DNA from: a virus
Lineage: Duplodnaviria; Caudoviricetes
Direction: 5' to 3' (one strand)
Length of the DNA: 48,886 nt
IMG/VR virus record: IMGVR_UViG_3300032261_000011
Location: 1 to 48,886 of that record
Shown here: one piece after another, positions 1 through 36,664 of the stretch
How the letters are laid out: the number at the start of each line of letters is the position of its first letter
Numbering within the stretch: position 1 is the first letter of the stretch
Made by a program: the position numbers and the translations under genes
Notes under the pieces: model-generated
Seen by the model: only the letters and a program-made list of their open reading frames with translations
Told to the model about the DNA's origin: nothing
The model's database searches: none

Positions 1-565
1 CTCCGCTGGTAAAGGGAGTATATCCGGTAGCATCCACATTCGTTTGAGTGTCCGGAGTAAACAAGGTTAAGACATCGCCAGCCACACCGCCAACAAAGAA
101 ATTGCGTCCGTTAAGCTGAGTCATTCCTTGAACGCCAGTAATGATAATATTGTCTCCGGCTTGGTAAGCAGGAACGACAGTACCGTCCGGAAGGGTATAT
201 GGACTCCCGGCTCCAGTAGCCGTTACGGTAAGCGGATTCGTCGTTGTCGCAGCGGTTATAGGAAGAGCCTTCTCTAAGACCAAATTGCCATTGCTTACAA
301 ACCTAATATACCCATTCCCAAACTCAATAACATACGAGATTTCGAACGAAGCCTGAAATGGAATCAACCTGACCGCGAAGCCCGGAAGACCTACCTGAGC
401 AACAAATTTAGTTCCAGTCCTAGTGCTAGCACCTCCACGGTAATCGACATAAAAGTTCCGCATTGTTGCCGCGCCACGGTGGTACTTCTGAAGATCCACC
501 CTAGCGTTGAGCGCCGGTGCCCATTCGCCAGTATTAAAGGCATGTTGAATAACTGGTTGGGCCAT
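1..565 (-). CDS. Tail nozzle / tail tubular protein B-like, N-terminal part (continues across the window junction into 48886..46480)
   Basis: ATG at 565 overlaps the upstream stop (TAATG). My translation is open to base 1: MAQPVIQHAFNTGEWAPALNARVDLQKYHRGAATMRNF...GGASTRTGTKFV, a typical N-terminus of podovirus nozzle/stabilisation proteins. Missed by the ORF track. Confidence 0.85.
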   Translation of the reverse strand, partial: MAQPVIQHAFNTGEWAPALNARVDLQKYHRGAATMRNFYVDYRGGASTRTGTKFVAQVGLPGFAVRLIPFQASFEISYVIEFGNGYIRFVSNGNLVLEKALPITAATTTNPLTVTATGAGSPYTLPDGTVVPAYQAGDNIIITGVQGMTQLNGRNFFVGGVAGDVLTLFTPDTQTNVDATGYTPFTSG

Positions 566-1680
566 TAATAGCTCGCAAACATCGGTCCCCAATCAAACTG
601 GATATTCGGACTTATCTCCCAAGTTGGATAATAGATCCCACGAGTTCGGATAAAGTCCGGCGTCACATCATTAATAGTCAATCCTTCGTTTGCATCTGCT
701 TTTCTTGCCTCAGTAATCAGGTTATTGGCGAGGGCAACGCCCATATTCGCCATTGCCTTATCGCCAGTAAGCTGAATTGCCAGTCTTGCCCCAACTATTC
801 CAGCCCAAGCTTCAAGGAAGTTCTCGTCCATTACGTTTGGGTTCTGGACCTGTCGAACATAACAAAGGGTAGCGAACTCCTGATTGGTTAGAATGACCCT
901 TTGCTCCTGATTTGGAATTACCGAGCTATACGTCAAATTAAAGGTTGCGCCTGTTCCAAAGTTCGTCGAAGATGCTTGTCCAATCGGTTGCACCTGTTGG
1001 TTATGGAGATAGCTTCCTCCAAGAGCTAGTGCAGCTGTTCCAATGATCTGGGGTACAACCCCAACCGTAGCAACGCTTTGTCCAACTCCAGTCGTTAGAA
1101 CTACAAGCTGGGCCGGAGCACCGCCAGGGATAGGAATTCCTAAAGATGGAGGTGTGGCTGGCGGTGGAGCAACTAAGGTTATAACTTCGCCAACCTGATA
1201 ATTGGTTCCAGAATTAGCAACCGTTGCCGCTTGAACCATAAAGAACTGATCGACCGCGACCTTGTACTTCTGCGGTGGCCCAAGCCAAAAGGCCGGAGCT
1301 GCGCCGGTTACAGCCGTAGTAATCGGAATACCTGAAGCAAACCCGGTAGAGAATTGTGGTATGATATAGATTGGCCTCAGACAATCTACTGGATACTGAT
1401 ACTCGTATGCCCACGGTGGCGGTGGAATTCCCCTCTGCCACGTTGTCTGTGGTCCTACACTTGGATTCTCTGGCGTTCCAGGCGTTGCTGTTATCAGCAC
1501 CAGATTGTTGTAAATAGTCCCACAATTCCATGGAGCCATGCGTAACAAGGCGTCACGCAATGGCTCCAGGATTATGTTCGCCTGGATCGCTTCGTTGCTC
1601 TGCTCAGTAAGGGATGCTACTGTTGTTCGCGTTCCGATGATTTGCAGAGCACGATTGACGATATCGACCTCTACTGTCAT
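565..1680 (-). CDS. Tail adaptor / tail tubular protein A-like, with a beta-rich insertion
   Basis: MTVEVDIVNRALQIIG...WAYEYQYPVDCLR...YVRQVQNPNVMDENF...LAIQLTG pattern of gp11-like adaptors; lies directly upstream of the nozzle gene. Confidence 0.75.
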   Translation of the reverse strand: MTVEVDIVNRALQIIGTRTTVASLTEQSNEAIQANIILEPLRDALLRMAPWNCGTIYNNLVLITATPGTPENPSVGPQTTWQRGIPPPPWAYEYQYPVDCLRPIYIIPQFSTGFASGIPITTAVTGAAPAFWLGPPQKYKVAVDQFFMVQAATVANSGTNYQVGEVITLVAPPPATPPSLGIPIPGGAPAQLVVLTTGVGQSVATVGVVPQIIGTAALALGGSYLHNQQVQPIGQASSTNFGTGATFNLTYSSVIPNQEQRVILTNQEFATLCYVRQVQNPNVMDENFLEAWAGIVGARLAIQLTGDKAMANMGVALANNLITEARKADANEGLTINDVTPDFIRTRGIYYPTWEISPNIQFDWGPMFASY

Positions 1681-2388: not shown

Positions 2389-2635
2389 CTATCTTCTCCT
2401 TTAATCCCGCTTCGTGATATGCCCCACCCTGATTCCGTTCTACTTCGAGATACTCATGGAGCCTCTTATTCGTTCGCTCCATCTCTTCGAGAAAGGTCTG
2501 TGGAGCTTGCTGCCCGATACTCTCCCAGTAATACTTGATATAGATCAAGTCATGGTAGTGCATCGTTAAACGCCAGATCCGTTCCGGTACGACTTCATCG
2601 GCTTCCATCTTATGGTCGCGATCCCTTACGCCCAT
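2366..2635 (-). CDS. Hypothetical protein (89 aa)
   Basis: TAATG coupling with upstream gene; GGAG SD. Confidence 0.6.
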   Translation of the reverse strand: MGVRDRDHKMEADEVVPERIWRLTMHYHDLIYIKYYWESIGQQAPQTFLEEMERTNKRLHEYLEVERNQGGAYHEAGLKEKIDEARKSR

Positions 2636-2808
2636 TAGCGTTTCTCCGCATTCGGCGCCGGTTTCTTCTTCTTCAAGATTCCCTTTCCAGCATCGGCTTG
2701 GTTGAACTCTCTTGCCACGTTCTGCGGCACTCCAACCTTCTTAGCGAACGCTGGGCTGTGGGCTGCTCCCGCCATCAGGCGAGCTTGAGCAGGGCTTTTG
2801 CTTGGCAT
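2635..2808 (-). CDS. Small conserved phage protein (57 aa, MPSKSPAQARLMAGAAHSPAFAKKVGVPQNVAREFNQAD...)
   Basis: Hand-translated (below the ORF-track cutoff); AGGAG SD; resembles a small-protein family I recognise from phage structural regions. Confidence 0.75.
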   Translation of the reverse strand: MPSKSPAQARLMAGAAHSPAFAKKVGVPQNVAREFNQADAGKGILKKKKPAPNAEKR

Positions 2809-2998
2809 CTTCTAACTCCTTTATCTTTGCCTGTAGAATCTGAACTCTAGCGTACATTACAGCCAATGTGATCTTGGTTTGACCAAGTTCAGTAGCAACG
2901 AATTGATTAGCCTGTTGAAGTTCCATCAAAGTTGGAGCTTCTTGTGCTAAAGCGCCAGAAGTAAATAGAAGAGCTACTCCCAGACTAACTGCTCTCAT
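2741..2998 (-). CDS. Signal-peptide-bearing coiled-coil protein (85 aa)
   Basis: GGAGG SD before ATG 2998; MRAVSLGVALLFTSGALA|QEAP followed by a heptad helix. Confidence 0.7.
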   Translation of the reverse strand: MRAVSLGVALLFTSGALAQEAPTLMELQQANQFVATELGQTKITLAVMYARVQILQAKIKELEDAKQKPCSSSPDGGSSPQPSVR

Positions 2999-5252
2999 AT
3001 ACACCTCCAACGACAAGAATGGAGGAATTGTTAGCAGGAAAAGTCCCATCATACTTCCTAATGATAACTTGGGTTGAACCAGGGCCACATACCACAGAGA
3101 GAGTATATGCGTTCCCAGCATCGGCCCCGGCCCCACAGAATTGATCCGAAGAAGTCTGAGTAGTCGCTGGCAAAGTCGCTTCCATAGAGGTGGCACAAGT
3201 GCCAATATTAGTGACCGGAATAACAATGTTATAGTATACAGTCTTACCAACCACCATTTCCCGAGCAACCACAGTCCCAAGCGTCGGTGGGCCACCAGAC
3301 TGACAAGTTACCGTCGATGTGTAGGTAACCCAGGAACCACCTTGTCCAAGCGAGGCCCAAGCACCACCAGTGTAAACCCAAAGTACCTTCGAGAATGAAT
3401 CGAACGCAAGTGGTGCCCTTCCAGTAATTGCCGTTGGTGTTCCCGTTGGAGAACCAACCATCGTATTGGTATAGATGAATCCACTTGTTGCACTTTGAGC
3501 CAACGCTCCAGAGCCCATTACAAGATTGCCTGGAGAAACAGTCGCAGCATTTGCAGTTACCGTGCCGGCAGCGGTAATATTGCCGCTGCTATCCAAAGTA
3601 GCATTAGCACTCCCTCCAAATGCTCCAGCATTGTTAAACTGAATAGATGCACTTGGTCCTCCTGGAGTTCCGCCACCTCCGGCCACAGTGGCCCAAGAGG
3701 TTATTCCCGTTCCATCCGTCTGAAGAACTTGACCCGAGGTTCCAGCGGAGTTTGGTAAGCGAAAAGTCCAAGTACCTGCCGCAGCCTGCGGTTGAACTGT
3801 CACAGTCCCACTAGTATTCCCAGAAAGATTTATCCTTCCCAACGTAGTTCCAGCCGTACCAATGCCAAGTAAGCCGATTCCATCAAACTGAAACGCAGGG
3901 ACACCGCCAAAGGCCCCAGAATTATTAAACTGGACTGCTCCGTTAGCCCCACCAGGAGTGCCTCCACCGCCGCCAGTAACTGTTGTCCAAGACGTAACGC
4001 CAGCCCCATTCGTCTGTAAGACTTGCCCGCTCGTTCCAGCGTTAGCCGGAAGCTGGAATGTCCAAGTACCTGCAACAGCCTGTGCTTGGAAGGTCACAAC
4101 TCCACTAGTTGCTCCGGAAAGATTTATCCTTCCTGTAGAAGTTCCAGAAGTGCCTATGCCAAGAAGGCCGACTCCATCGAACTCAAGATTAGCAGAGCCA
4201 GTAAAGCCGGTTCCACTATTAAGCTGAACTGAGCTTGCTGGCCCTCCCGGAGTCCCACCTCCACCGCCAGTAACCAGAGAGCCATTAACATAAAACCCGC
4301 CGGGTACATTGATTGTTCCAGGCCCTATATAACCACCAGTCGGAAGGGCGTTGCCAGCGCCATACAAGATCATTCCGTTGGAAAGGCCAATTTCTACTTG
4401 AGAAGCCCCATTGTACACATTCGTAAGGAAGAGAGAAGTTCTTCGAGTAGCAAAGGCAGCATCATTAACGCCACCGTTAATCTGACTACAGATCTGTGCA
4501 TCAATAGATGAAACAGCATTGATGGTTTGCCCAACAAGCTGAATGCAGACGCTCGCATCGCCAGGAGCAGCAGCATATCCAGGGATATATCGACCGAAGT
4601 TTATCGTGATGAAATCTATCGCCCGTATCAGTGTTGGAACAGTAATAGATGCAGGAGGAGTCGAAACGTCCGTTACCATCAGGTCGGTATATCGAGCGTC
4701 CCATTGAACGTTCATCGTTCCGCCACCAGTAACCGGATCGCAGATTACTGGCAAGCTCTGAGCATTGAACAATGTCGGGTTAGCTCGAATGTTAGCACAA
4801 AGCCCGTTTGCGCTATCAACGTTATTAGTGCTGGTATCTTGAAAGCTAATGGTTATCGGAGATCCAGTCAGTGAAGCCGAGGTGAACCGAAGTGCATGAA
4901 CCCGACCAACGGCAGAATTGAGAACATGTACGTTAGTCCCTTGAACATACGGATTCTGACCGAGAACCCCGAAAGGATAAACATTGTTTCCACCAAAGAC
5001 CACGTTCTGATCGAGCGTGGTCATTACATGGCCGGTAAAGCCGGGAGAGGTAATCCCGGATATCAATGGATACTGCCAAAGAGGAAAGCTACAGCCAATA
5101 GGCGGGTCAGCGACTTGCGGGCTACAAGGATAAGCATTCGGTTGCGTTGAAATGATTGGAACACCAGCCGTTGACTGACCCGGGGGCGACCCAATAACTT
5201 GAGCCTGGGCAGAAGTGGAAAGCAGCAGTGCAAGAAGAGCTAGCTTCTTCAT
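2985..5252 (-). CDS. Tail fibre-like protein with N-terminal Sec-type signal peptide (755 aa)
   Basis: GGAG SD before ATG 5252; MKKLALLALLLSTSAQA|QVIG; Gly/Thr-rich fibre repeats (TPGG..VQFNNSGAFGG, LP..AGTSGQVLQTNGAGVTSW); C-terminal beta receptor-binding-like domain. Confidence 0.75.
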   Translation of the reverse strand: MKKLALLALLLSTSAQAQVIGSPPGQSTAGVPIISTQPNAYPCSPQVADPPIGCSFPLWQYPLISGITSPGFTGHVMTTLDQNVVFGGNNVYPFGVLGQNPYVQGTNVHVLNSAVGRVHALRFTSASLTGSPITISFQDTSTNNVDSANGLCANIRANPTLFNAQSLPVICDPVTGGGTMNVQWDARYTDLMVTDVSTPPASITVPTLIRAIDFITINFGRYIPGYAAAPGDASVCIQLVGQTINAVSSIDAQICSQINGGVNDAAFATRRTSLFLTNVYNGASQVEIGLSNGMILYGAGNALPTGGYIGPGTINVPGGFYVNGSLVTGGGGGTPGGPASSVQLNSGTGFTGSANLEFDGVGLLGIGTSGTSTGRINLSGATSGVVTFQAQAVAGTWTFQLPANAGTSGQVLQTNGAGVTSWTTVTGGGGGTPGGANGAVQFNNSGAFGGVPAFQFDGIGLLGIGTAGTTLGRINLSGNTSGTVTVQPQAAAGTWTFRLPNSAGTSGQVLQTDGTGITSWATVAGGGGTPGGPSASIQFNNAGAFGGSANATLDSSGNITAAGTVTANAATVSPGNLVMGSGALAQSATSGFIYTNTMVGSPTGTPTAITGRAPLAFDSFSKVLWVYTGGAWASLGQGGSWVTYTSTVTCQSGGPPTLGTVVAREMVVGKTVYYNIVIPVTNIGTCATSMEATLPATTQTSSDQFCGAGADAGNAYTLSVVCGPGSTQVIIRKYDGTFPANNSSILVVGGVYESS
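3590..4275 (-). repeat. ~100-aa intragenic tandem repeat (about 2.3 copies) in the fibre gene
   Basis: The unit GGGGGTPGG-x-VQ(L/F)N...GLLGIGT...GRINLSG...AGTWTF.LP..AGTSGQVLQT.G.G.TSW occurs twice, plus a partial third copy. Confidence 0.85.
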
Positions 5253-5605
5253 ATATTGCTCTCCATAATGGTCAACGGATTCCCGCCTGGACCAGCAAGG
5301 GTAAAGCCAAACCAAGATCCTTGGCATTCTCCAGTGATTAGCAAGTACCCGTTAACCGAAGGTACCCTAAGACAACCGCCAAGTGCTGTTGGAGTCGCAG
5401 CTATCGGATTCCCTTGCCAGTCGGCCCCAGGGTAGATCATCACATCAACCTGCCCCGGATTATGGAAGGTGATGCTTACCCTTTGCGGATTCCCTCCGAC
5501 AAGTTGCTGCGGTGTCGGACTCAAGTTGTTGTTAGCATGTATCTTCCCACCGGAGGTTGGGCCAACCGCACCAGAGCCTCCAGCCAGAAATGCTATCTGA
5601 GGCAT
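5249..5605 (-). CDS. Hypothetical beta-rich virion-associated protein (118 aa)
   Basis: AGGAGG SD, coupled overlaps, predicted beta-sandwich pattern. Confidence 0.65.
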   Translation of the reverse strand: MPQIAFLAGGSGAVGPTSGGKIHANNNLSPTPQQLVGGNPQRVSITFHNPGQVDVMIYPGADWQGNPIAATPTALGGCLRVPSVNGYLLITGECQGSWFGFTLAGPGGNPLTIMESNI

Positions 5606-6153
5606 CAGATCCTCCTAGTACCTCGCTCCATCAGTTTCTTTTGAAGCTGAGCGTTCGCTTCCATCAAAGCTTGAACCTGTTCTTGAAGCTTTGCGAACTC
5701 ACTTGGATCAATCCCCTTGAGCGACCTTGGTGGCTGGTTTATCGGCGTCACATTCATTCCAGCTACCGCTAGGTCTGCGACTTGTCGCTGAAGATCATTA
5801 AGTATGGACTGGCTATAGGATACTGGCAGATCCTCAATGGGATGCTTCCAGAACTCCTTCCTCGACGCTGAGATGACCTTTGCCTCATCGTCAATAGGTT
5901 CCATATCCGGTGTTGGATCACCTGCGAAGACGTAATCGTTGGGCTGTCCTCTTCCTTCGTAGCAGACTGTGTATCCTCCTGCTCCGTCATTTGGCCTCTC
6001 CTGTGAATTCCCAGGTTGATTCGGATCGAGAAGTGCCGGGACGGCATACATCTTTCTCATCTGCCTTCCAGTTTGAAGGTCAGTCTCGATGTATTGCCAC
6101 TCACTACCTTGAATCAGGATGTAGTGAGGAGCTTTCAGCTTCCATCTGGCCAT
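5605..6153 (-). CDS. Hypothetical protein with C-terminal coiled coil (182 aa)
   Basis: Tight operon packing; GAGG SD. Confidence 0.7.
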   Translation of the reverse strand: MARWKLKAPHYILIQGSEWQYIETDLQTGRQMRKMYAVPALLDPNQPGNSQERPNDGAGGYTVCYEGRGQPNDYVFAGDPTPDMEPIDDEAKVISASRKEFWKHPIEDLPVSYSQSILNDLQRQVADLAVAGMNVTPINQPPRSLKGIDPSEFAKLQEQVQALMEANAQLQKKLMERGTRRI

Positions 6154-6154
6154 G

Positions 6155-6400
6155 TTATCCCTCTACACTTGTAACGCCATCCGGCCTTGGAGCAGGAGTA
6201 TTAGCGAAGCGAGAGGCGTTCATCATCGTCGTCGCAGAAGCGTCAAGGGCGATCATGTATGGTGCCCAAGTCGCGGCGCTAAGGCTCGTCCAGACGATGT
6301 CTCCCGCTTGGGCATTCCCGGGTGTGTCAGCAACGGTCTGCCCGACCTTTCGCTTGATATGATCGAGAACAGCAGCTTGTTGTAGGCGCATTCTAGCCAT
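6155..6400 (-). CDS. Hypothetical protein (81 aa)
   Basis: AGGAG SD; operon packing. Confidence 0.65.
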   Translation of the reverse strand: MARMRLQQAAVLDHIKRKVGQTVADTPGNAQAGDIVWTSLSAATWAPYMIALDASATTMMNASRFANTPAPRPDGVTSVEG

Positions 6401-6409
6401 GGGATTCTC

Positions 6410-6721
6410 CTATGGTCGCGTTGGAGGTGGTGGAAGTAGATGCTCGATATCAGAGTAAGAATTCAGCTTCTTGACTTCTTGATCGGTCAGTCCGTGCGTG
6501 GTGCCATCGTCAAGCGTGTGGCTCTCATCGAACGGTCCCGAGCCGGTCGGCTGGATCACCACGGCACCTTGGCCGTCGGTCAGCTCGATGGTTTCCCACC
6601 AATAGCTGCCGATCGTGTCGTGGTCGGCGTGGCGCCAGTTGAGGCCGGTTGCTGCTTCCGCAGAGCGGGCCTTTGCGTCATCGATATTCTTGAACAGAAG
6701 GAAGCGGTCATTTGGTGTCAT
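6410..6721 (-). CDS. Hypothetical protein, possible receptor-binding accessory (103 aa)
   Basis: Directly follows the lectin-like gene; visibly GC-richer codon usage. Confidence 0.6.
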   Translation of the reverse strand: MTPNDRFLLFKNIDDAKARSAEAATGLNWRHADHDTIGSYWWETIELTDGQGAVVIQPTGSGPFDESHTLDDGTTHGLTDQEVKKLNSYSDIEHLLPPPPTRP

Positions 6722-6722
6722 G

Positions 6723-7556
6723 TTAGAAGCCCCAATAGCTGTGCTGGTTGGTGCTCATGTTTGCCGCTTGCGTCGCGCTGAAACCTATCGGCCAGAGGCC
6801 GCCCTCGGTTTGATCGCCGTTCAAAATATAGCTGCCGCCAACAAAACCCATAAATCCCCAAGTGGTGCCAGCGCTGCCCCAATTGTTAGTTCCGGCATTA
6901 CCACTGTTGGCCGTACCATCCACATAAAGAACACTGGATGCGCCATTATAAACGGCATTAAGCGACCGCCATACGTTGTCGTTCGCGGAAACATTGATGT
7001 CGGTCCCGGCAAAGAAATGTAGCGTATTGGCGACGCTCTGGAATCCAAGTTGTACGAACGGCGATTGCGAGGTAAGGCACATGCCGCTAGAGGTGAAAGA
7101 GCCCGTTCTGATCGCAACCGCTGACGCGGTGAACGGCTGAGTATCAACGGTCGATGTGGTAACAAACATAAATTGACTGCCCGTCGATTGCATGATCGGC
7201 AGGCTTCCCAGGCCGGAAAGAATCAATTGCGGCTGATTAGCCGCGTTCCCCTGTGTCAAATTATTGGTGCCGGACTGATCGTAGAGGGTGGTAACAAAAC
7301 CGTTGCCGCCGCCAATGAATGAAGAAATCGAAGCAACATCTAGATTGCCATTAGATAAAATGACAAAATCCTGCGTAGTGTTGTCAGACGAACGACGCAC
7401 ATTCACGCTTTTAGTGCTGCCATTACTGACGGCAGCATTATATCCGCGCAGGCCCCACCAGGCGGTAGCGCCACTCACCACATCGCCCGGCCCGCTATAA
7501 GCACCACCAGCGGCCGGTTGTGGCATAAATGCAGTTGGTACAAATTGCGGAATCAT
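6723..7556 (-). CDS. ConA/LamG-fold (arabinofuranosidase-B-like) putative receptor-binding protein
   Basis: AWWGLR...VNVRRSSDNTTQDF...FVTTLYDQSG...QPQL...LYVDG motifs typical of this phage lectin-like family. Confidence 0.6.
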   Translation of the reverse strand: MIPQFVPTAFMPQPAAGGAYSGPGDVVSGATAWWGLRGYNAAVSNGSTKSVNVRRSSDNTTQDFVILSNGNLDVASISSFIGGGNGFVTTLYDQSGTNNLTQGNAANQPQLILSGLGSLPIMQSTGSQFMFVTTSTVDTQPFTASAVAIRTGSFTSSGMCLTSQSPFVQLGFQSVANTLHFFAGTDINVSANDNVWRSLNAVYNGASSVLYVDGTANSGNAGTNNWGSAGTTWGFMGFVGGSYILNGDQTEGGLWPIGFSATQAANMSTNQHSYWGF

Positions 7557-8377
7557 GGAACGCCTACGGCCGTCATGTAAGTACGAAGGCGGTTGTAAAA
7601 GTTAGTAGCATCACCCGCGGTTAGACTTCCTCCTGCACTAACCGCTGCAAGGATACCAGTGCTTCCATTCTCCGACACATGTCCAGCACTATGATCGTCG
7701 ATACAAGTAACTGACCAAGTCCAACTAACGTTAGTAATCGAGCCACTTGTGCTACTTGCCGTACCGACAGAAGCGCCGTTGTGATATAGCTGGAGTGCTG
7801 TTGAGCTAGTGCGGCAACCCACGAAGTGTCCAAGGTTCTGTCCCGCCGTATAGGTGAAGTTGGGCCCATTGCCGGTTGAATCCGTACAGTCAATATGAAT
7901 CAGCGTTCCATTATCAAGGATCGAACTCGTCGTATCCGCTGCGTGGCCGATCTGCCCCACCATATAACCGCCAGCACAAGTCGTAACGGCCCAAGCACCA
8001 ATATGACAATCGTTCAGCTTAAACGCTACGCCAGCCTGCTCCCTAAAGCCACTATCTATGTAAGCGGTCGGATAAGCGGTAAGCTGCCCTGCAAAGCCTC
8101 GATCCACAGTAAATGGTGGTCCACCAATAGCTGTCGCTTTAGCTAAAAGAGCCATGTCGGTCAAAGCGGCCCCTTGATTCTCTGCCGCATAAATCCATAG
8201 CCGATCAAGCTTTGGCCAAACCCCATCACTCTTTAAGCCTACTATAAGATCATCAACAAGGTTCCGTCGTTGATTACTAACTGTTCCGCCAGCAATCGCA
8301 ACTGCATTGATCCACGCCGCCACCGATGGGTCATGGACCCCAGGCATAAAGTTCGGTGGATGAAGTGGTTTAATCAT
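7553..8377 (-). CDS. LamG/ConA-like tail-associated protein
   Basis: AAWINAV..AGGTVS...LKSDGVWPKLDRLW...LYHNGASVGT...FYNRLRTYMTAVGV pattern of phage tail lectin-like proteins. Confidence 0.55.
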   Translation of the reverse strand: MIKPLHPPNFMPGVHDPSVAAWINAVAIAGGTVSNQRRNLVDDLIVGLKSDGVWPKLDRLWIYAAENQGAALTDMALLAKATAIGGPPFTVDRGFAGQLTAYPTAYIDSGFREQAGVAFKLNDCHIGAWAVTTCAGGYMVGQIGHAADTTSSILDNGTLIHIDCTDSTGNGPNFTYTAGQNLGHFVGCRTSSTALQLYHNGASVGTASSTSGSITNVSWTWSVTCIDDHSAGHVSENGSTGILAAVSAGGSLTAGDATNFYNRLRTYMTAVGVP

Positions 8378-8862
8378 TGATGAGCCGCTACGCGGTACCC
8401 TGAGATTGCGTTGATTCGCCAGATACTCAAAGTGAACTTAGCATTGGCAGCGTTAGTGATAGTATCACCAGTATTACTGCCAACACTAAAGCCTGAGAAA
8501 GTCGGCACCACGCCAGAAGCAGCAGGCATAGTGATAAGAAGCATACAACTTCCATCATTAGCCGGAGCCGTGATGGTCCAAGCGGCAGTATTGGCCGTGA
8601 TAAACTGAAGTGGCCTTGCTCCACAGTCAATCGTGATATTGCCAGTGGTAAGAGAAAGCGAGGTAACGTTGCTTCCACCAGTTGTCGTCTGATCTGCTGT
8701 ATCCAGTCGGGCAATAGGCGAGGCAAGATTACCCTGCATGAAGGTTTGAAGCTGAGTAATCGTTTGCTTCGTGCTCGTCCCAACCGGATTCTCCATCTCA
8801 TAGATGGCAGCGGCAATTACCGCAGGACCAGCCGTCAGGTCTTGGATTCGGACGTTTGCCAT
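8374..8862 (-). CDS. Fibre anchor/connector-like virion protein (162 aa)
   Basis: MANVRIQDLT...KQTITQL N-terminus resembles fibre attachment motifs; beta-rich C-terminal domain. Confidence 0.55.
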   Translation of the reverse strand: MANVRIQDLTAGPAVIAAAIYEMENPVGTSTKQTITQLQTFMQGNLASPIARLDTADQTTTGGSNVTSLSLTTGNITIDCGARPLQFITANTAAWTITAPANDGSCMLLITMPAASGVVPTFSGFSVGSNTGDTITNAANAKFTLSIWRINAISGYRVAAHQ

Positions 8863-9071
8863 TAGTTGGTCACCCTTATATCGACGAGGTTAGTGACTTC
8901 CCGATTATTCGCTAAAGTCGTATCGACCCTTGTCGCTCCAACTGGAGGGCCACCTCCACCTCCAACCGTAGCCTTACCGAGGATCCTTCTGATTATGATT
9001 CCAGCCTCCGCACTTGTCGCTACAAAGGCTGAAGCACTAATCAAGAAGGTACGTCGCGCAAAACTGTACAT
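8862..9071 (-). CDS. Small protein with twin-arginine (Tat-like) signal peptide (69 aa)
   Basis: MYSFARRTFLISASAFVATSAEA|G: RRxFL, hydrophobic stretch, AxA site; stop coupled TAATG to the next gene. Confidence 0.6.
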   Translation of the reverse strand: MYSFARRTFLISASAFVATSAEAGIIIRRILGKATVGGGGGPPVGATRVDTTLANNREVTNLVDIRVTN

Positions 9072-9588
9072 CTGTCGTCGTCCCGAAGGTTGGAGTTCCA
9101 GCGGTGACCATTACGAAGTAGTCGCTTTGCCCTGCCGTTCCAACGTGAGCCCTACCAAGGCCATCGACGCCCCAAACTGTCATTGTTCCGAGCTTCGATG
9201 AGCCAGTGGCCATTGCGATCATCGGAAGGACTTTGGTAACGTCAAGGGCGTTGATTGCTGGATTGGTCTTGTCAGTGAAGGTTGTGTTCGTTGGGTTCGC
9301 GTTGAACTGAAAGACGTCCATTTCACCAGCAATCACTGACTTCGAAGTGATTCGGATTGACTGCATGATGCCACCGTTATCTGGGGCACCTTGAGCCGAA
9401 GATCTGAAGGCGGTAAGTGTGATCAGGCCGCCGACAACGTTACCAGCGACATAGGCACTTGCTGCCGTTACCGTTGGCGTTGCACAGACTTCCCTTGTTA
9501 ATGCTCCAGCAGAGACGATTGGAGCAATCTGGGCCTGCGCCGCCGTAGACGCAAGCAACAGGCCCAGAAGCGCCGCGAAGCATCTCAT
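9037..9588 (-). CDS. Signal-peptide-bearing beta-sandwich protein, possible capsid decoration (183 aa)
   Basis: ATGA overlap with upstream stop; MRCFAALLGLLLASTAAQA|QIAP; TPTVTAASAYVAGNVVGGLITL motif. Confidence 0.7.
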   Translation of the reverse strand: MRCFAALLGLLLASTAAQAQIAPIVSAGALTREVCATPTVTAASAYVAGNVVGGLITLTAFRSSAQGAPDNGGIMQSIRITSKSVIAGEMDVFQFNANPTNTTFTDKTNPAINALDVTKVLPMIAMATGSSKLGTMTVWGVDGLGRAHVGTAGQSDYFVMVTAGTPTFGTTTDVQFCATYLLD

Positions 9589-10067
9589 CTTAGTCGGTAC
9601 CAAGTGTTGTTGCTAAGCGAATACTGGAACTCAACGCTGGCTCCAGCAGCAAGGGTAGTGATAGTGACGTTGCCACCGACCAAGGTCTGACCTGTGTTCG
9701 GTTGGATCGTCACCGCGTTGGTCACGAAGGCTGCGGCCGTCCCATTGATGACTTCGATCATCGATCCATCAAAGACTGGCGAAACCGGCAGAAGAATCGT
9801 AGCTACAGCCGGTTGGGCCGTGATGATGAAGCGATTGGTGTTGTTCGGAATCGTCAAGCTGGCCGTAACGGCATTCAAGATGTAGCCAGTAGAGTTCCGA
9901 AGCTGAGCAACCGAAACGAAGGTGCTTGGACCGCCCGGGCCACCAATAGCAAACGTAGCAACTTCGTTACCAGTCAGTGTCGTTGGGACAAGTTGTTGTC
10001 CGTAGACAATGGCGGCAGTAAGGGCAGCAACAGCCGCCCCCACTCCCCATGAGGACCATCTCTTCAT
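9585..10067 (-). CDS. Signal-peptide-bearing beta-rich protein, possible capsid decoration (160 aa)
   Basis: GAGG SD; MKRWSSWGVGAAVAALTAAIVYG|QQ; ends VEFQYSLSNNTWYRLR; follows the cement gene. Confidence 0.7.
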   Translation of the reverse strand: MKRWSSWGVGAAVAALTAAIVYGQQLVPTTLTGNEVATFAIGGPGGPSTFVSVAQLRNSTGYILNAVTASLTIPNNTNRFIITAQPAVATILLPVSPVFDGSMIEVINGTAAAFVTNAVTIQPNTGQTLVGGNVTITTLAAGASVEFQYSLSNNTWYRLR

Positions 10068-10075
10068 GATCCACC

Positions 10076-10660
10076 TCAGTTGGCGATAACAATGCCCGGA
10101 GGATATCCGCCGAGGATTGCGTTGTTCGTCGCATTGTAGAACTGATCGTGGCGATCAAGGACGATGAAAGCACGAATGGTTCCACCAGCCGAAGCGGCAA
10201 CGGCGCCGACAATAGTGTAGTTAAGCTGGAGGAACCTCGGTTCGGAGACTCCGTCGGGAGGACGAGGCATATCCATATCCATCAGCCTTGCCCCTTGAGT
10301 AAGGGTAGCAAGAGCGTAGGCTGGACTGATCCACCACGTCACGAAGGTGCCTGGAGCACCAGAGCCATTGTCTGGAGCACCTTGAAGGGCGACAGAAAGC
10401 GAAGTGATAGTCGTGAAAGGAGTCACGACCTCCACAAGCAGCTTCATCGCCGGATCATCACCGATGCCAATGTCCCTTGCTCCCTGACCCGCGGCGAGAA
10501 GTGGGATGCCTGAGCCAGTAGCAAGGTGAAGGTCGATGATGTTAGTGCTCGGGCCAGTTGCGGTGATACCGCCAGTAGCGAAGCTGTCGCCAGGAAGAAC
10601 CGCTCCAGCGGCGGTAACAACTGCTGGATTGGTGAATTGAAGGAAGTTGTCGAGAATCAT
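10076..10660 (-). CDS. Capsid cement protein (BPP-1 Bbp16-like)
   Basis: MILDNFLQF...STNIIDL...ARDIGIGD...RFLQLNYTI; immediately after the MCP gene. Confidence 0.75.
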   Translation of the reverse strand: MILDNFLQFTNPAVVTAAGAVLPGDSFATGGITATGPSTNIIDLHLATGSGIPLLAAGQGARDIGIGDDPAMKLLVEVVTPFTTITSLSVALQGAPDNGSGAPGTFVTWWISPAYALATLTQGARLMDMDMPRPPDGVSEPRFLQLNYTIVGAVAASAGGTIRAFIVLDRHDQFYNATNNAILGGYPPGIVIAN

Positions 10661-10661
10661 G

Positions 10662-11705
10662 TTAGACCACCCTATTCTCGTTGTTGAGGATCGCATCACA
10701 GGTCCGGATCGGGATTCCACGGAAGGTTGTGATGGGTTTGCCATCGAACTCCTCAATCCGAAGGAGAACGTTGGTTTTGTTCATCGCTTGAAGGTCGAGG
10801 TAAGTCCGGATAACGCGGTTGGCGTAAATAACCGTCCTTCCCATGTTGGCTCGAACCTCAGGTGTATCAGACGTCTGGACTGTGGTTGCACTAACCGGAG
10901 CCGTTGGGAGTCGATATAATCCACGAACCAACAGGTTGATGAGGTTAGCTGCCGATACTCCAGTAAGCTGAGTGACGTCGATGTTGCTGATTCTGACGAC
11001 ATAACGCCAATCCCTCAAGACCAGACCGATTTCCCACTTGAAGTGGTCACGGTAGGCTTGAAATGTGTTATTCGAAGCATCCAACACCGGCCACTCACCC
11101 ATGTCCCTATGCTGCAAGCCAGTGATCTTGCCCTTCGGGAAAGTGGCGTGGCAAGTGTCGGAACCCCAAACAACGATCCACATGGAAGTGTTCGTCGTAC
11201 TGGTGCCGCCACCATCGAGAACGTTTGCTGCCGTTTGGGAGTTCGCTGCCGTCACTGTGGAGTAACGGGGAGCAAAGCCTGTAAAGCGTTCCGGGTTAGC
11301 GAACTGGTTGCCGTAGATCAGCGTCGCGGCAACCTGCTGAGACATGCCCTCAAGAAACGATTTAACTTCAGAAAGGCGAAAGTCAGCAGTGTTACCGTTA
11401 AGATCAGCAACGTCCTTGTCGATGACAGCGTAGGTTTCCAGATTCCCGCAGGTATCCACGATCTGCGCTGTCGTACTCTTAGCATTGGGAACGCCCAAGT
11501 TCAAGAGTCGCCACGTTGCTTGTGGCAAGCCGGTTCTGACGGTAGTCTTGTGACCAGTTGGGAGATTGCCCTCGATGACGAGCATGTCATCAAGGATCTC
11601 GTTGGTCTGGGACAGAAGCTCGATGATTGTGGCTACTCGATAGCCGTCGTCAAGTCGCTTCGCCCAATCCGCATAGGTTAATGCGGTAGCGCCGATAATG
11701 GCCAA
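10662..11705 (-). CDS. Major capsid protein (BPP-1 Bbp17/epsilon15 gp7-like)
   Basis: LTYADWAKR..IIELLSQTNEILDDM..TTVRTGLP..DWRYVVRISNID..FRGIPIRTCDAIL; AGGAGG SD with TTG start. Confidence 0.95.
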   Translation of the reverse strand: MAIIGATALTYADWAKRLDDGYRVATIIELLSQTNEILDDMLVIEGNLPTGHKTTVRTGLPQATWRLLNLGVPNAKSTTAQIVDTCGNLETYAVIDKDVADLNGNTADFRLSEVKSFLEGMSQQVAATLIYGNQFANPERFTGFAPRYSTVTAANSQTAANVLDGGGTSTTNTSMWIVVWGSDTCHATFPKGKITGLQHRDMGEWPVLDASNNTFQAYRDHFKWEIGLVLRDWRYVVRISNIDVTQLTGVSAANLINLLVRGLYRLPTAPVSATTVQTSDTPEVRANMGRTVIYANRVIRTYLDLQAMNKTNVLLRIEEFDGKPITTFRGIPIRTCDAILNNENRVV

Positions 11706-11786
11706 AGTGGCCTCCTAGGTTTAGATCCAAGCTCCTTTCTGTCGCATCAGTTCATCGGCCATCGACCACGCCTCGCGGGCCTCCGG

Positions 11787-12494
11787 TCACGGAAGGTTCG
11801 GATACAACGAATGGGCTGCGTCTGTCCGCTGCCCCGGTTGTTGCATCCCGAATCGACTTGGGCCTCTCGCTGCAACATGACCGCCTTCGGTCAACATTTG
11901 TGCAAGAGCGTAGAAGGCCCGAATGAAGGCTGGGTGATCCCCAACGCCAGTAAAGTCCATTGCCTGACGAAACTCGTTCGCCAACTTTGGACCAAGCATA
12001 TCAATCGCTCGCCCAACGGTTGGCTTAACTTCTGAATCGAGCTTGAAACCAATCTGTGGATCGGCCTTAATCTCCTTACGCCAATCATCTCGCATCTGGT
12101 TCATCATGTTCACAGATTCTTCATGCTGCCGCTGAGAAGTCTCTGCATAGAACGAAACCAACTTCTGTGCTTGATCCTGCGTCAGGTTCAGATCCTTAAA
12201 GATCGGTGTCGCCTTGTTTAGAATCTCCCCATCGAGTTCCCAACCGTTCTTCTCCCAACTTTCCGGAGCCTTGAACTCATACTTCTCCGGAGCCCTAACC
12301 TCGGCTGGCTTTACCCCTTCATTCAGTAGAGTCTTCGGTTCTTCCGGGGACGATTCTGAGGTTGGCGGGGCCGGGGCTGGTGTACTCGTAGGGGTCGATG
12401 TCGGCTTCTGCTCCGTCACCTGTGGAATCGGTGCTATCTCCCCCGTCGGTGTCCTCGTTACTCCTTCGGGCGATGTTTGTGTTGTCTCGTTCAT
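11787..12494 (-). CDS. Capsid scaffolding protein
   Basis: Pro/Thr-rich N-terminus; APEKYEFKAP..LNLTQDQAQKLV..GDHPAFIRAF..LYP; directly upstream of MCP. Confidence 0.8.
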   Translation of the reverse strand: MNETTQTSPEGVTRTPTGEIAPIPQVTEQKPTSTPTSTPAPAPPTSESSPEEPKTLLNEGVKPAEVRAPEKYEFKAPESWEKNGWELDGEILNKATPIFKDLNLTQDQAQKLVSFYAETSQRQHEESVNMMNQMRDDWRKEIKADPQIGFKLDSEVKPTVGRAIDMLGPKLANEFRQAMDFTGVGDHPAFIRAFYALAQMLTEGGHVAARGPSRFGMQQPGQRTDAAHSLYPNLP

Positions 12495-12786
12495 TTCTTT
12501 CCCTCATCATCTGAACGTACTGATCTGGGCAAGCCTTCATGATGTCTCCAAGAAGTCGAAGCCCGATACTTCGTTGGCCTTCATTGAATGCAGTAGCCTT
12601 AGTGTTGATAGTAAAGCTGGAAGCAAAGATGTGACAAGCTTCAAGTATGTCAAGCATCCAGCTACGGCCGGGAGGAAGAGACATGATGCCTTGCATGATC
12701 TCTTCCCGCTGTCTATCGGCAAGTCTAGCCTGCTTAGCTGCTTGCTTAACATCTCGTCGTTCTGATGCATTGTATTGGTCACTCAT
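12319..12786 (-). CDS. Bbp19-like protein
   Basis: IMSLPPGRSWMLDIL...TAFNEGQRSIGL motif; between portal and scaffold. Confidence 0.75.
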   Translation of the reverse strand: MSDQYNASERRDVKQAAKQARLADRQREEIMQGIMSLPPGRSWMLDILEACHIFASSFTINTKATAFNEGQRSIGLRLLGDIMKACPDQYVQMMRERNERDNTNIARRSNEDTDGGDSTDSTGDGAEADIDPYEYTSPGPANLRIVPGRTEDSTE

Positions 12787-13019
12787 GCTAAGCCTGGAAA
12801 GAAGACACAGTTAACCGAACCAAGAGACTTGCTGACGCAAATGTGACAGTCATTATCTTGTGACGTACGAATGCGAGACTTTGGAATCATCCAGCCGTGA
12901 TAGGCAACGGTACCATCGTCAAACGAAACGAACTGCTTGCAGTCGATTGGATGGCAGTCCCGATCTGCACAGCAGTCTAATGGATACCAAGAATGAACGA
13001 GCAGAAGGAACACAATCAT
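12783..13019 (-). CDS. Small Cys-rich protein (HSWYPxxCC family, 78 aa)
   Basis: ATGA couplings on both sides; 7 Cys; short hydrophobic N-terminus. Confidence 0.7.
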   Translation of the reverse strand: MIVFLLLVHSWYPLDCCADRDCHPIDCKQFVSFDDGTVAYHGWMIPKSRIRTSQDNDCHICVSKSLGSVNCVFFPGLA

Positions 13020-29257: not shown

Positions 29258-29592
29258 CAAACGACCGTCAACTTCCAGCAATAGATGAAGATGCATTCAG
29301 TAGGGCCATTGCTGACATTGCCAATACGGTTAAGCCCCAGAGATCATCGAGGCCGCCAGAGCTATTCGTTAGCATTGGAAAGAAGCTAGGGGAAACCCTC
29401 ATTCACTCGGCTGAAGAGCAAGTCAAGACCGCGCAAGAAAACCTTGTACGAGTCAAAGACTTTGCTGAACGATTGGAAAAGGAGATAGATCGCCGCGACC
29501 AAGAGCATTCTAACTTTATGGACCGTCTTGTCAACTTTGGCAGATCAATCCTAGACGCAAACCAAAAGTTCTATGATGGGAGTACGAAATGA
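29254..29592 (+). CDS. Hypothetical coiled-coil protein (112 aa)
   Basis: ATGA couplings; GGAGG SD. Confidence 0.7.
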   Translation: MTNDRQLPAIDEDAFSRAIADIANTVKPQRSSRPPELFVSIGKKLGETLIHSAEEQVKTAQENLVRVKDFAERLEKEIDRRDQEHSNFMDRLVNFGRSILDANQKFYDGSTK

Positions 29593-30578
29593 CTCCAAAC
29601 CTTCGAGTTGTCCATGCTGAAGAAGTTGAGCCAGATATCCCAAGTCCGTTCATTCCAGGCACCAACATTCAATTCGCCTGGGATTCAACCAGCCTGGACT
29701 GGCTCAAACGCTGTCCCAGGCTTTATCAACTCAATAACGAAGGGTGGGTTCCTGAAGAAGAATCCATCCACCTTCGCTTTGGCATTGAGTATCATCAATC
29801 CCTTCACGATTACGATATCGCGAAGGCGGCAGGCATCAAGCACGAGGACGCTATCTATGACGTGATCCGAGAGCTTATCCTTCGAACTGATGACTTTAAT
29901 CCGGACCATAAACAGAAGAATCGTTACAATCTAATCAGAACGGTTCTAGGATATCTGGATAAGTTCAATCCAGATCCGGCTGTAACTGTTATCAGATCGG
30001 ATGGAACTCCTGCGGTTGAGGTTAGCTTCCAGTTCAACTTGGACTTTGGTATCGAAATCACCCAGACCAACCCTAAGACTGGAGAGGACGAACCTGCCTA
30101 TCACCCATATGTCCTTTGCGGTCATCTCGATCGGATTGTTGAGTTCAATGGCGATATGTACGTGATGGATCGTAAGACAACCAGTAGCACTCCCGGTCCA
30201 TTCTATTTCAACCAATTTGAACCCAACAACCAAATGTCCCTGTATACTATCGCCTCGCAGATAACAATGGACTCTCCGGTTAAGGGCGTCATCATTGATG
30301 CAGCATCGGTTAAGGTCAATGAATCTGACTATGTTCGCGGCTTCACCTACCGAAGCCAAGAGCAACTGGACGAATGGCTTAAAGATCTTCGGTATTGGTT
30401 CGCCAAAGCGGAGGACTACGCGGCTGAAGGTTATTGGCCAATGAACGATACAGCCTGCGATAAGTATGGTGGTTGTAAGTTCCGAGAAATCTGTTCCAAG
30501 TCCCCACAAGTTCGGGACTCTTGGCTCAAAGCCAAATTCAAGAAAGGAGAACAATGGAACCCCTTAAAGACCAGATGA
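29589..30578 (+). CDS. PD-(D/E)XK nuclease (Cas4/RecB-like)
   Basis: CPRLY, FGIEYH, GHLDRIV, MDRKTT, QMSLY, C-terminal C..YGGC.FREIC. Confidence 0.88.
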   Translation: MTPNLRVVHAEEVEPDIPSPFIPGTNIQFAWDSTSLDWLKRCPRLYQLNNEGWVPEEESIHLRFGIEYHQSLHDYDIAKAAGIKHEDAIYDVIRELILRTDDFNPDHKQKNRYNLIRTVLGYLDKFNPDPAVTVIRSDGTPAVEVSFQFNLDFGIEITQTNPKTGEDEPAYHPYVLCGHLDRIVEFNGDMYVMDRKTTSSTPGPFYFNQFEPNNQMSLYTIASQITMDSPVKGVIIDAASVKVNESDYVRGFTYRSQEQLDEWLKDLRYWFAKAEDYAAEGYWPMNDTACDKYGGCKFREICSKSPQVRDSWLKAKFKKGEQWNPLKTR

Positions 30579-30769
30579 GAGCAATTCTTCCCTTGCTCAA
30601 GGCGAGGGTTGTAGAGAAAACGCCAGATCACTTCAAGATCGCTATTGGAGGAAGCACGACTATAACTGTTCCCATGCCAATCGGAAGATATGATATCCGA
30701 GATGGCGACATCTTAACACTTTACACGGAGGTGCTCCTTGCCGCTCCTAAGCCAACATCAATCCAATGA
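30575..30769 (+). CDS. Hypothetical protein (64 aa)
   Basis: ATGA overlap with the nuclease stop. Confidence 0.55.
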   Translation: MRAILPLLKARVVEKTPDHFKIAIGGSTTITVPMPIGRYDIRDGDILTLYTEVLLAAPKPTSIQ

Positions 30770-31592
30770 ATACACCAAGATGTTGATTATGGGTGATTCC
30801 GGTTCAGGCAAAACTGGAGGGCTCACATCCTTGGTCAAGGCAGGATACAAGTTGAGGATATCTGATTATGATAACGGCCTTGAGCCGTTAAAGCAGTTTA
30901 TCCTCAAAGAATGCCCGGAGAGAATAGATGATGTCGAATACAGAACTCTCAGAGATAAGAGAAAGGCTACTCCGCTTGGTCCCCTTGTTGATGGGCAACC
31001 TACAGCGTTCGTGGAAGGACGCAGAATGCTCGACAAGTGGGCCTATAATCTCCCCGACGGAACTAAAGTTGACTATGGAGTACCGTCTGAATGGGGACCA
31101 GATGTTATATTCGTGCTCGATTCTCTTACCTTCTTCGCAACTGCTGCCTACGATTGGGCTTTGCCCCTCGTCCCTCGTAGCAGGTCAACAGGAGAGTATG
31201 ATAAGCGAGCCGTCTATTGGAATGCTCAAGGCGCTGTCGAAGATGCTATTTCGTTCGTCACATCAGAGTCATTCCGAACCAACGTAATCATCATTGCTCA
31301 CATTCGATACGTTGAGAATGATGATAGAACTCGCAAGGGCTACCCCAATACAATCGGAGCGGCCCTTTCGCCATTGATTCCACGGTACTTCAATTCCGTG
31401 GCATTATGTCAAACCAGAACAGGAGGAAACCGAACAATCCAAACACTTTCCACTTCCATGATCGACCTGAAGAATCCAAAGCCCTTTGCAATGGCCCCAA
31501 GCTATGATCTTTCTACTGGCCTTGCTGAGTTCTTCTCGGTTCTTCGGGAACCGCCTGCAAAGATCAAACCCACCATAGTGAGAAAGGTGTAA
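30738..31592 (+). CDS. AAA_24/Sak4-like ATPase (putative recombinase)
   Basis: GDSGSGKT, DYDNG, VLDSLT, IIIAH; lies between the nuclease and SSB-like genes. Confidence 0.82.
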   Translation: MPLLSQHQSNEYTKMLIMGDSGSGKTGGLTSLVKAGYKLRISDYDNGLEPLKQFILKECPERIDDVEYRTLRDKRKATPLGPLVDGQPTAFVEGRRMLDKWAYNLPDGTKVDYGVPSEWGPDVIFVLDSLTFFATAAYDWALPLVPRSRSTGEYDKRAVYWNAQGAVEDAISFVTSESFRTNVIIIAHIRYVENDDRTRKGYPNTIGAALSPLIPRYFNSVALCQTRTGGNRTIQTLSTSMIDLKNPKPFAMAPSYDLSTGLAEFFSVLREPPAKIKPTIVRKV

Positions 31593-31593
31593 C

Positions 31594-32109
31594 ATGGCAA
31601 TTCAACCACGCAGACCACAAACAGAACCTCAGTACGACGAGAACCTCGAAGAAGAAATGCCAGAGTTCTCTGCACTTCTCGATGTACCGCTTAAGGACAT
31701 CGAGAGGCCAAAGCCAATTCCTGTTGGCACCTATACCGTTATAATGACAGAAATGCCGAAGCAAGGCAAATACAGCACGGGGACTCCTTTCCTTCGATTT
31801 GTTCTCCATGTTGTCGCCGCTGGTCCTGATGTCCATGAACAATCTCTTCTTAATAGCCTAACAAAGCCATCAGGCGAAACCGTCCCTCTTTCTTCCAAGG
31901 TCATCTATCAGAACTTTGGACTGACAGAAGATGCTATGCCGTTCCTGAAGGATTTCTTGGTTGGAACTGGAATCAAAGGTAAATCGTCCAACGAAATCAT
32001 CGGGAACCTTCTCAACCAAGAGTTCAAGGTTTACGTCATCCACGACGTACCGAGAACCGGCGGTAGCGATCGAATCTTCCCTAAAGTCCAACGGTCAATG
32101 CCTGCCTAA
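31594..32109 (+). CDS. DUF669-like single-stranded DNA-binding protein
   Basis: PKPIPVGTYTV...FLRFVL...FLKDFL pattern; follows the Sak4-like ATPase. Confidence 0.65.
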   Translation: MAIQPRRPQTEPQYDENLEEEMPEFSALLDVPLKDIERPKPIPVGTYTVIMTEMPKQGKYSTGTPFLRFVLHVVAAGPDVHEQSLLNSLTKPSGETVPLSSKVIYQNFGLTEDAMPFLKDFLVGTGIKGKSSNEIIGNLLNQEFKVYVIHDVPRTGGSDRIFPKVQRSMPA

Positions 32110-32114
32110 CGCCT

Positions 32115-32197
32115 TTCCTTGACGGAGGGAACTGCAGAATCCCCTCTCCGCTACCGTCAAGGGAACGTCCTGGGCAAGACGTTAAACTGCCCTGGAG
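32115..32197 (+). other. Two intergenic stem-loops upstream of the UDG-exonuclease gene
   Basis: TTCCTTGACGG...CCGTCAAGGGAA and TGGGCA-AGACGTTAAAC-TGCCTG, the second abutting the GGAGG SD. Confidence 0.55.
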
Positions 32198-32202
32198 GGT
32201 CT

Positions 32203-33219
32203 ATGAATAAGATAATGCTTCTTGGTGAAGCATGGGGAGAGCATGAAGAACGGGAGAGAACAGCTTTCGTTGGCCCAACCGGCCACTTGCTTAACGAGAT
32301 GCTCCTTGAAGTAGGCATCCACCCGTCTGAATGCTACAAGACCAATGTGTTTAATCGTCGACCGCCCCGAAACCTTATCTCCGCGTTCTGTGGGGATAAG
32401 GCTTCTGGGATTGATGGCTACCCTGCGCTTCAATCTGGAAAGTATGTCCGAAACGAATTCGAGCCAGAATTTGTCCGACTCACTAAGGAACTCAATGCGG
32501 TTGCTCCAAACGTTATCGTTGCGTTTGGGAACACTGCGACATGGGCTTTGCTTGGCAAACCGAACATAGGGGCAATGCGTGGCTTCACCTATCATTCAAC
32601 GCACCTTGTCGTTGGCCTTAAGGTTCTGCCCACTTATCATCCCGCCGCCATCCTTCGGTTGTGGGAATACCGCCCTACCGTTCTAGCCGATCTGCATAAG
32701 GCTAAACGGGAATCCAAGTATCCAGATATCAAGCGTCCAAAGCGGGAAGTCTGGATTGAGCCAACCCTTGAAGATCTGGAGACTTTCTATGAGCGATATA
32801 TCGTCGGATGCTCACTCCTTTCTGTGGATATTGAGACAGCTGGAAGCCAAGTTACCTGCATTGGGTTCGCGCCGGGAGCCAGCGTTTCCCTCGTTATTCC
32901 ATTCTATGACTCACGAGCAAAAACTCGAAGCTATTGGCCTAATGAGCACTCTGAATCACAGGCTTGGCATTTTGTGCAACGAGTTCTTGCTACTGATGTC
33001 CCAAAGCTCTTCCAGAACGGACTCTACGACATAACCTTCCTGCTTAGATCTATGGGCATCAAGGTTCGCAATGCAAAGGAGGACACCATGCTTTTACACC
33101 ATGCTCTTCAGCCAGAATCGCTGAAGGGCTTGGGCTATCTTGGCTCGATCTATACCAACGAGCATAATTGGAAAATTATGCGGGATAGGGTTACCAAAAC
33201 TATCAAACGTGACGACTAG
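32203..33219 (+). CDS. Family-4 uracil-DNA glycosylase domain fused to the N-terminal part of a PolA 3'-5' exonuclease domain
   Basis: UDG: LLGEAWG..E....FVGPTG, TNVF..RPP, AFGNTA, TYHPAAILR. Exo I: SVDIET. Exo II: QNGLYD, then DTMLLHHAL. No Exo III motif. Confidence 0.9.
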   Translation: MNKIMLLGEAWGEHEERERTAFVGPTGHLLNEMLLEVGIHPSECYKTNVFNRRPPRNLISAFCGDKASGIDGYPALQSGKYVRNEFEPEFVRLTKELNAVAPNVIVAFGNTATWALLGKPNIGAMRGFTYHSTHLVVGLKVLPTYHPAAILRLWEYRPTVLADLHKAKRESKYPDIKRPKREVWIEPTLEDLETFYERYIVGCSLLSVDIETAGSQVTCIGFAPGASVSLVIPFYDSRAKTRSYWPNEHSESQAWHFVQRVLATDVPKLFQNGLYDITFLLRSMGIKVRNAKEDTMLLHHALQPESLKGLGYLGSIYTNEHNWKIMRDRVTKTIKRDD

Positions 33220-33232
33220 AAAGGCGAAAACC

Positions 33233-33517
33233 ATGCTTATGCAAAATCGGAAGACAGATCTGTTCCTCGCATTGATGGCCCATGTTAGTAATCCAGACGG
33301 CTTGACCGATTACGAACTGGCCGAAATATGCAAGCGTCAACTCAATAGCATCAATCGGCGACGAAGCGAACTTCGGGACTTAGGCTTTGTCCAAGAAACC
33401 AATCGGAAGGGAACCTCTCCCAATGGATCTCCACTCACCATTTGGAAAGTCACCAAACGCGGAGTGAAAGAGTTCCTCAAGCTTGATACACCCAATGGTG
33501 TCACGAGGCGTCGATGA
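33233..33517 (+). CDS. Winged-helix DNA-binding protein (94 aa)
   Basis: GLTDYELAE...SINRRRSELRDLGFV...SPNG...IW. Confidence 0.75.
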   Translation: MLMQNRKTDLFLALMAHVSNPDGLTDYELAEICKRQLNSINRRRSELRDLGFVQETNRKGTSPNGSPLTIWKVTKRGVKEFLKLDTPNGVTRRR

Positions 33518-36627: not shown

Positions 36628-36660
36628 AAAAGAAGGGAAGGCCGAGCCAACAACCTTCCC
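36627..36660 (-). terminator. Terminator between the convergent arms
   Basis: GGGAAGG...CCTTCCC stem followed by TTCTTTTT on the minus strand. Confidence 0.65.
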
Positions 36661-36664
36661 AAGT

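Follow-up and report, generated by a model that had tools for sequence, protein, structure and literature searches.

Leader-bearing late-operon proteins of an epsilon15/BPP-1-like podophage as candidate virion accessories

The particles of tailed phages are taken to be finished in the cytoplasm. IMG/VR record IMGVR_UViG_3300032261_000011, a phage genome whose full 48,886-nucleotide stretch we call the window, carries a late-operon cassette between the genes for the capsid cement protein and the tail adaptor in which genes with predicted export leaders are mixed with leaderless ones. We propose that the leader-bearing cassette proteins are probably virion accessories that fold in the periplasm and dock on leaderless partners at lysis. 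The leaders, the coupling of the genes and the covariation of cysteines with leaders are read from sequence, and the folds are predicted; export, leader cleavage, pyroglutamate formation, the pairings of parts and the timing are what we infer from them.

Leaders in the cassette and across the clade

A preliminary description had assigned signal peptides to five genes of this region. All five open reading frames and their N-termini were found, on the minus strand, within the following late-operon genes, which are translationally coupled between cement and adaptor:

10662..11705, minus: major capsid protein, leaderless (PF20911, E 4.5e-131; phrog_212)
10076..10660, minus: Bbp16-type cement protein, leaderless (PF21190)
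9585..10067, minus: g160, predicted Sec leader (residues 1-23), short conserved N-terminal segment, XD domain (T4 gp10/CBA120 TSP4-like)
9037..9588, minus: g183, predicted Sec leader (1-19), C-terminal knob-like domain widespread in viruses, Cys35-Cys177 pair
8862..9071, minus: g69, with a leader that may be Tat-like (ARRTFL), followed by a Gly/Pro linker and a short tail; the weakest of the five
8374..8862, minus: g162, leaderless, weak similarity to the XD region of g160 (hmmsearch E 2e-4 among 13 proteins; hhalign E 0.093)
7553..8377, minus: g274, leaderless; Reyranella prophages carry homologues in this interval, and Rhizobium and Flavobacterium phages have them too
6723..7556, minus: g277, leaderless, ConA-like (PF09206 and PF13385, weak), 1 Cys
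5605..6153, minus: g182, conserved leaderless clade marker (leader in 0/35)
5249..5605, minus: g118, leaderless predicted jelly-roll, translationally coupled to the gene for the 755-amino-acid (aa) protein
2985..5252, minus: 755-aa protein, fibre-like; behind a predicted Sec leader (1-17) come an N-terminal region with paired Cys, three Gly-linked repeats and a C-terminal domain that is again Cys-paired
2741..2998, minus: g85, predicted Sec leader (1-18), short coiled-coil-like segment, 1 Cys
565..1680, minus: tail adaptor, leaderless (phrog_394), the downstream boundary of the cassette

Seven leaderless genes are interspersed among the leader-bearing ones, a mixture that the preliminary description had missed. 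An N-terminal motif is common to g182 and its neighbor g81 (6155-6400).

We called leaders with our own von Heijne-type rule, not SignalP, and gene starts with our own caller, which is blind to amino-acid content. The caller reproduced four of the five starts. For 8862-9071 it took a downstream TTG, because the ATG overlaps the preceding gene by 35 nucleotides (nt) and has a Shine-Dalgarno match of just 3 nt. The leaders have a net charge of +1 or +2, a best 7-residue hydropathy of 1.9 to 3.2 and small residues at -3 and -1, followed in four cases by the Gln that had been predicted for the mature N-termini. Features of Sec/signal peptidase I leaders (a basic n-region, an uncharged hydrophobic h-region and small -3/-1 residues) are present in g160, g183, the 755-aa protein and g85. 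Three of the five, g183, the 755-aa protein and g85, pass the threshold of the rule. At 2.26, g160 scores below it, and we accepted its leader because 116 of its homologues pass, among 120 listed from the 294 found (the profile contained the leader, which favors this outcome). The signal peptides are convincing for four genes and weak for g69, which fails the rule; the suggestion of Tat export comes from this single gene, with its ARRTFL motif and modest hydropathy of 1.93. The rule passed 18 of 2182 internal pseudo-starts and 217 of 2520 shuffled N-termini.

The leaders are retained well beyond the window. We fetched 86 viral loci, dropped six identical to the window phage (L007 was kept as its stand-in) and analyzed the 76 with a capsid call; a close set comprises 49 loci with capsid identity of at least 79% and at least one gene in the cement-to-adaptor interval. 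In the close set, the rule passed 126 of 358 interval genes versus 1 of 379 core virion genes, the latter being its false positives. At least one leader-bearing gene occurs in 44 of the 49 loci and in 18 of 19 complete intervals, with up to 8 per locus. More distant viral loci gave 6 passes among 34 interval genes. Distant loci from cellular genomes gave 14 among 259 genes, and 54 of their 61 complete intervals have no leader-bearing gene; 10 of the 14 passes are in deltaproteobacterial prophages, and several resemble lipoproteins. A capsid tree from a quick IQ-TREE run covers the 90 loci whose intervals are complete; in it, a branch of 18 rows (Shimodaira-Hasegawa-like approximate likelihood ratio test support, 100) holds 17 leader-bearing rows and, nested inside, L027 without any. 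Judged from these sequences, the leader trait is clade-wide.

In 88 of the 126 leader-bearing clade proteins the residue after the predicted cut is Gln, and in the g160 alignment the leader sequence is free to vary while the Ala-Gln boundary is retained. N-terminal Gln is cyclized after cleavage in Bacteroidetes (PMC5837995); the accessible part of that paper gives no baseline for Proteobacteria or Acidobacteria. Leader-bearing genes of the cassette type also adjoin terminase genes in two loci (L022:3092-5082 and L056:3662-4117), and two relatives (L032 and L073) carry long Tat-like genes. No homologue of g69 was found among the fetched loci.

Cysteine pairs, folds and known systems

Cysteine content follows the leaders. 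Where a protein contains Cys at all, the count is even in 106 of 114 leader-bearing proteins versus 67 of 150 others, and in 70 of 76 versus 34 of 80 after collapse at 50% identity. For g183 we used the mature part as the query, and the matches are therefore free of leader bias. The search gave 1574 representatives; in the best 150, leaders pass the rule in 44 and the remainder are mostly leaderless forms. Cys35 and Cys177 are both present in 21 of these 44, never one alone; they occur in 3 of the 106 others, all 3 with leader-like starts missed by the rule. Caulobacter phage Seuss gp47 is a g183 homologue with neither leader nor Cys. The g277 protein is leaderless with one Cys, whereas both of its homologues in relatives are leader-bearing, with 9 and 12 Cys. 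As far as sequences can tell, leader and Cys pairs are gained and lost together within single families, as predicted from selection for oxidative folding after export; on this basis, export with oxidative folding appears well supported. The 10 Cys reported for the 755-aa protein are present, at 43/54, 152/171, 236/255, 650/686 and 706/722.

We then considered what the proteins might be. CBA120 TSP4 and the T4 gp10-like baseplate protein of KP1 are assembled in the cytoplasm. Both (7REJ and 9F4A), together with the Pa223 capsid spike gp52 (9NY6), are XD proteins related to g160 by fold; the predicted fold of g160 (160 aa) matches this tailspike-docking domain of known virions across the whole domain. 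Pa223 gp52 has no cleaved leader, since it is modeled from residue 2. Compared with the known XD proteins, g160 is a minimal form, with a 137-residue mature part and a leader, and its predicted fold makes it likely to be a spike or branching adaptor. The homologues of g183 fall in Atlas clusters that are 88 to 100% viral. The predicted jelly-roll g118 is a candidate cytoplasmic base for the 755-aa protein; its comparators for a capsid vertex or spike base are the single jelly-rolls PM2 P1, STIV A223 and YomS. A loop insertion in the cement protein, found in 27 clade sequences and missing from 5 more distant ones in the alignment (median length, 184 aa in the clade versus 158 in distant relatives), is a candidate docking site.

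The 755-aa protein had been named the main fibre. That identity is plausible but tentative: the protein has no PHROG, Pfam or PDB match. Its repeat recurs in proteins of relatives that are fibre-like, among them leaderless L027. As had also been noted, it lacks the usual N-terminal tail anchor: a profile built from the T7/epsilon15-type anchors of relatives has no match in the six frames of the window. In six other loci, small leader-bearing genes like g85 come after the long protein, and g85 is possibly a co-exported assembly chaperone.

Cellulophaga phage phi10:1, a cultured tailed phage, offers a parallel. Its gp091-gp094 (KC821618) are consecutive late genes with Sec-like leaders and Gln at +1, and the four leader-bearing proteins are annotated "structural protein" from tandem mass spectrometry (MS/MS). 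However, it is an unrelated Bacteroidota phage with 0 to 2 Cys per protein and no sequence match to the window cassette. Closer to the window phage, the epsilon15, phiV10 and BPP-1-like podophages have the same core gene order and families, but cultured epsilon15/BPP-1-like members have a short cement-adaptor interval, which in Caulobacter phage Jess A holds one leaderless gene. Virion proteins of inoviruses, such as M13 pIII and pVIII, carry leaders, but these phages assemble at the membrane without lysis. Agrobacterium phage Milano is tailed and has extensive virion disulfides (PMC10811340); in the portion of its text available to us, the word "periplasm" is absent and there is no signal-peptide passage. 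In the open literature that we searched, we found no description of an exported-accessory route for tailed phages. The novelty would be this route, if attachment is confirmed; the domains themselves are known.

Docking at lysis and other readings

In the proposed route, spike-, knob- and fibre-like proteins with leaders would be exported to the periplasm in late infection, where the leaders would be cleaved and the Cys pairs disulfide bonded. Lysis would mix the compartments, and the exported parts would dock on finished particles. We suggest pairing of cement or capsid with g160/g183 and of the g118 jelly-roll with the 755-aa protein, with g85 as the chaperone of the latter. The preliminary description had such parts folding and oxidizing in the periplasm and attaching to virions at or after lysis, or being displayed on the infected cell. 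Its export and oxidative folding find support in the clade-wide leaders and the leader-Cys covariation, and support for an identity as virion accessories comes from fold, from leaderless homologues that occupy the same slots and from the phi10:1 MS/MS annotation.

Some relatives add a further element, which the preliminary description had missed. Wzy_C-clan enzymes act at the periplasmic face of the membrane. A multi-membrane gene resembling O-antigen ligases (Wzy_C-like), absent from the window, lies amid leader-bearing genes in seven loci (6 of the 49 close loci plus L087):

L037:8449-9345
L047:2513-3406
L048:12966-13997
L049:10049-11110
L050:12559-13650
L072:2176-3222
L087:12249-13127

PF04932 (Wzy_C) matched 4 of 6 tested members, at best with 26.5 bits, below the gathering cutoff of 31.7, and the alignment has invariant Arg positions. 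The exported proteins are rich in Ser plus Thr (22.6% versus 14.9%). The Wzy_C-like product could glycosylate exported proteins or alter host lipopolysaccharide (LPS). A more elaborate scheme, which we offer tentatively, is a two-compartment build: a head and tail core made in the cytoplasm and a periplasmic kit of spikes, knobs and fibres with host-added disulfides and pyroglutamate caps, to which in some members a phage O-oligosaccharyltransferase would add host glycans. Leader cleavage would expose a docking N-terminus, so that attachment to jelly-roll bases or the cement loop could occur only at lysis.

Several observations weigh against docking of exported accessories. T7-type tail-anchored fibres, present in 5 of the 19 complete clade intervals, are leaderless in 28 of the 28 cases found. 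The leaderless g162, g274 (a putative lectin-type host-binding protein) and g277 could supply host binding in place of the 755-aa protein. Two of the five window proteins have no Cys pair: mature g160 has no Cys, although most of its homologues have a pair, and g85 has one.

Former virion accessories might instead serve outside the virion, in the envelope or as soluble proteins, for receptor masking or superinfection exclusion, as decoys or as matrix-degrading enzymes set free by lysis. Bacteria do export phage-fibre-like proteins: Bdellovibrio MAT fibres are described, in the part of the paper accessible to us, as a signal peptide followed by a phage-fibre-like trimeric adhesin (PMC10769870), but they are chromosomally encoded bacterial surface proteins with a common N-terminal domain, outside any phage late operon. 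The XD fold also occurs in StcE, the long proteins of some relatives have pectate-lyase-like or GDSL domains, the Wzy_C-like gene could serve to modify LPS, and the tail-anchored fibres remain leaderless. Nevertheless, the genes are translationally coupled within the late operon, leaderless orthologues hold the same slots (one nested within the clade), a reading of the window proteins in mature form showed no membrane anchor or lipobox, and the leader-bearing phi10:1 proteins were annotated from virion MS/MS. We consider a non-virion role, the main alternative, unlikely.

Particles might also enter the periplasm well before the burst, if the outer membrane ruptures late or if exit is by vesicles, and be decorated there in a distinct maturation stage. 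A crude, local lipobox scan of 36300-38300, around the lysis genes, revealed no o-spanin candidate, and as many as 8 exported genes per locus may suggest an ordered process. However, the lysis region has a conventional amidase endolysin and an adjoining gene with a single membrane segment (37627-37938, the sole other rule pass among 73 called window genes), and there is no sign in it of a special exit route, which makes early entry improbable. Least credible of all is that the leaders are uncleaved membrane anchors, hydrophobic structural segments or start-choice artifacts on proteins that stay cytoplasmic: the calls come from our own rule, with its passes among shuffled N-termini, and the g69 start is doubtful, but the leaders vary around a kept Ala-Gln boundary, Gln is frequent at +1, Cys pairs follow the leader and blind start calls agree for four of the five genes.

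If docking of exported accessories is correct, tailed phages would have an extra assembly step at lysis, through which outer parts gain host disulfide formation, N-terminal cyclization and glycosylation. This would matter for host recognition and for how stable particles are in soil, and it would explain why many such genes are left unannotated or read as host-surface genes.

Genome, lineage and host

The phage genome is a complete circle of 48,884 bp: three independent contigs bridge the ends of the 48,886-nt record, which overlap by 2 nt, and the nozzle gene (989 aa) runs across the junction. Pfam and PHROG searches found the PF20911 capsid, Bbp16 cement, PF12236 portal, Bbp19, adaptor, nozzle and ejection proteins, which place it among the epsilon15/BPP-1-like podophages; capsid identity to cultured relatives is below 60%. 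By the estimate of a capsid scan, about 4000 stored stretches belong to this capsid family, and the lineage is therefore common. The sequencing runs listed for the phage are all soil metagenomes (24/24; 13 flagged as possible sources). Contigs from four soil runs, one of them possibly a source, have no differing letters and no indels in region 2600-11800 where covered.

Relative to PHROG profiles, the nozzle (46480-48886 joined to 1-565, minus) and the adaptor (565-1680, minus; 371 aa) have long Thr/Gly/Pro-rich insertions, possibly docking domains for accessories. The adaptor is preceded by a series of five or six leaderless genes that are small, conserved and charged (1677-2808, minus); one of them, 2635-2808, has a 68-nt overlap with g85 and resembles PHROG virion structural families.

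A DNA polymerase, a helicase and a primase are encoded by the phage itself; none of the scanned window genes was recognized as an integrase. Five replication genes in 29589-36627 (plus) are closest to those of Caulobacter phage Kuura among the cultured phages checked; the virion module of Kuura is unrelated. Proteobacterial prophages make up most of the labeled neighbors in the capsid tree. The host would be a diderm, perhaps alphaproteobacterial, with Acidobacteria possible too. Following the portal gene, a small 8-Cys gene with a very short hydrophobic start (12783-13019, minus) has weak matches only, on plasmids of the Rhizobiales Rhizobium, Mesorhizobium and Sinorhizobium; its product may be a further protein of the envelope whose leader is truncated.

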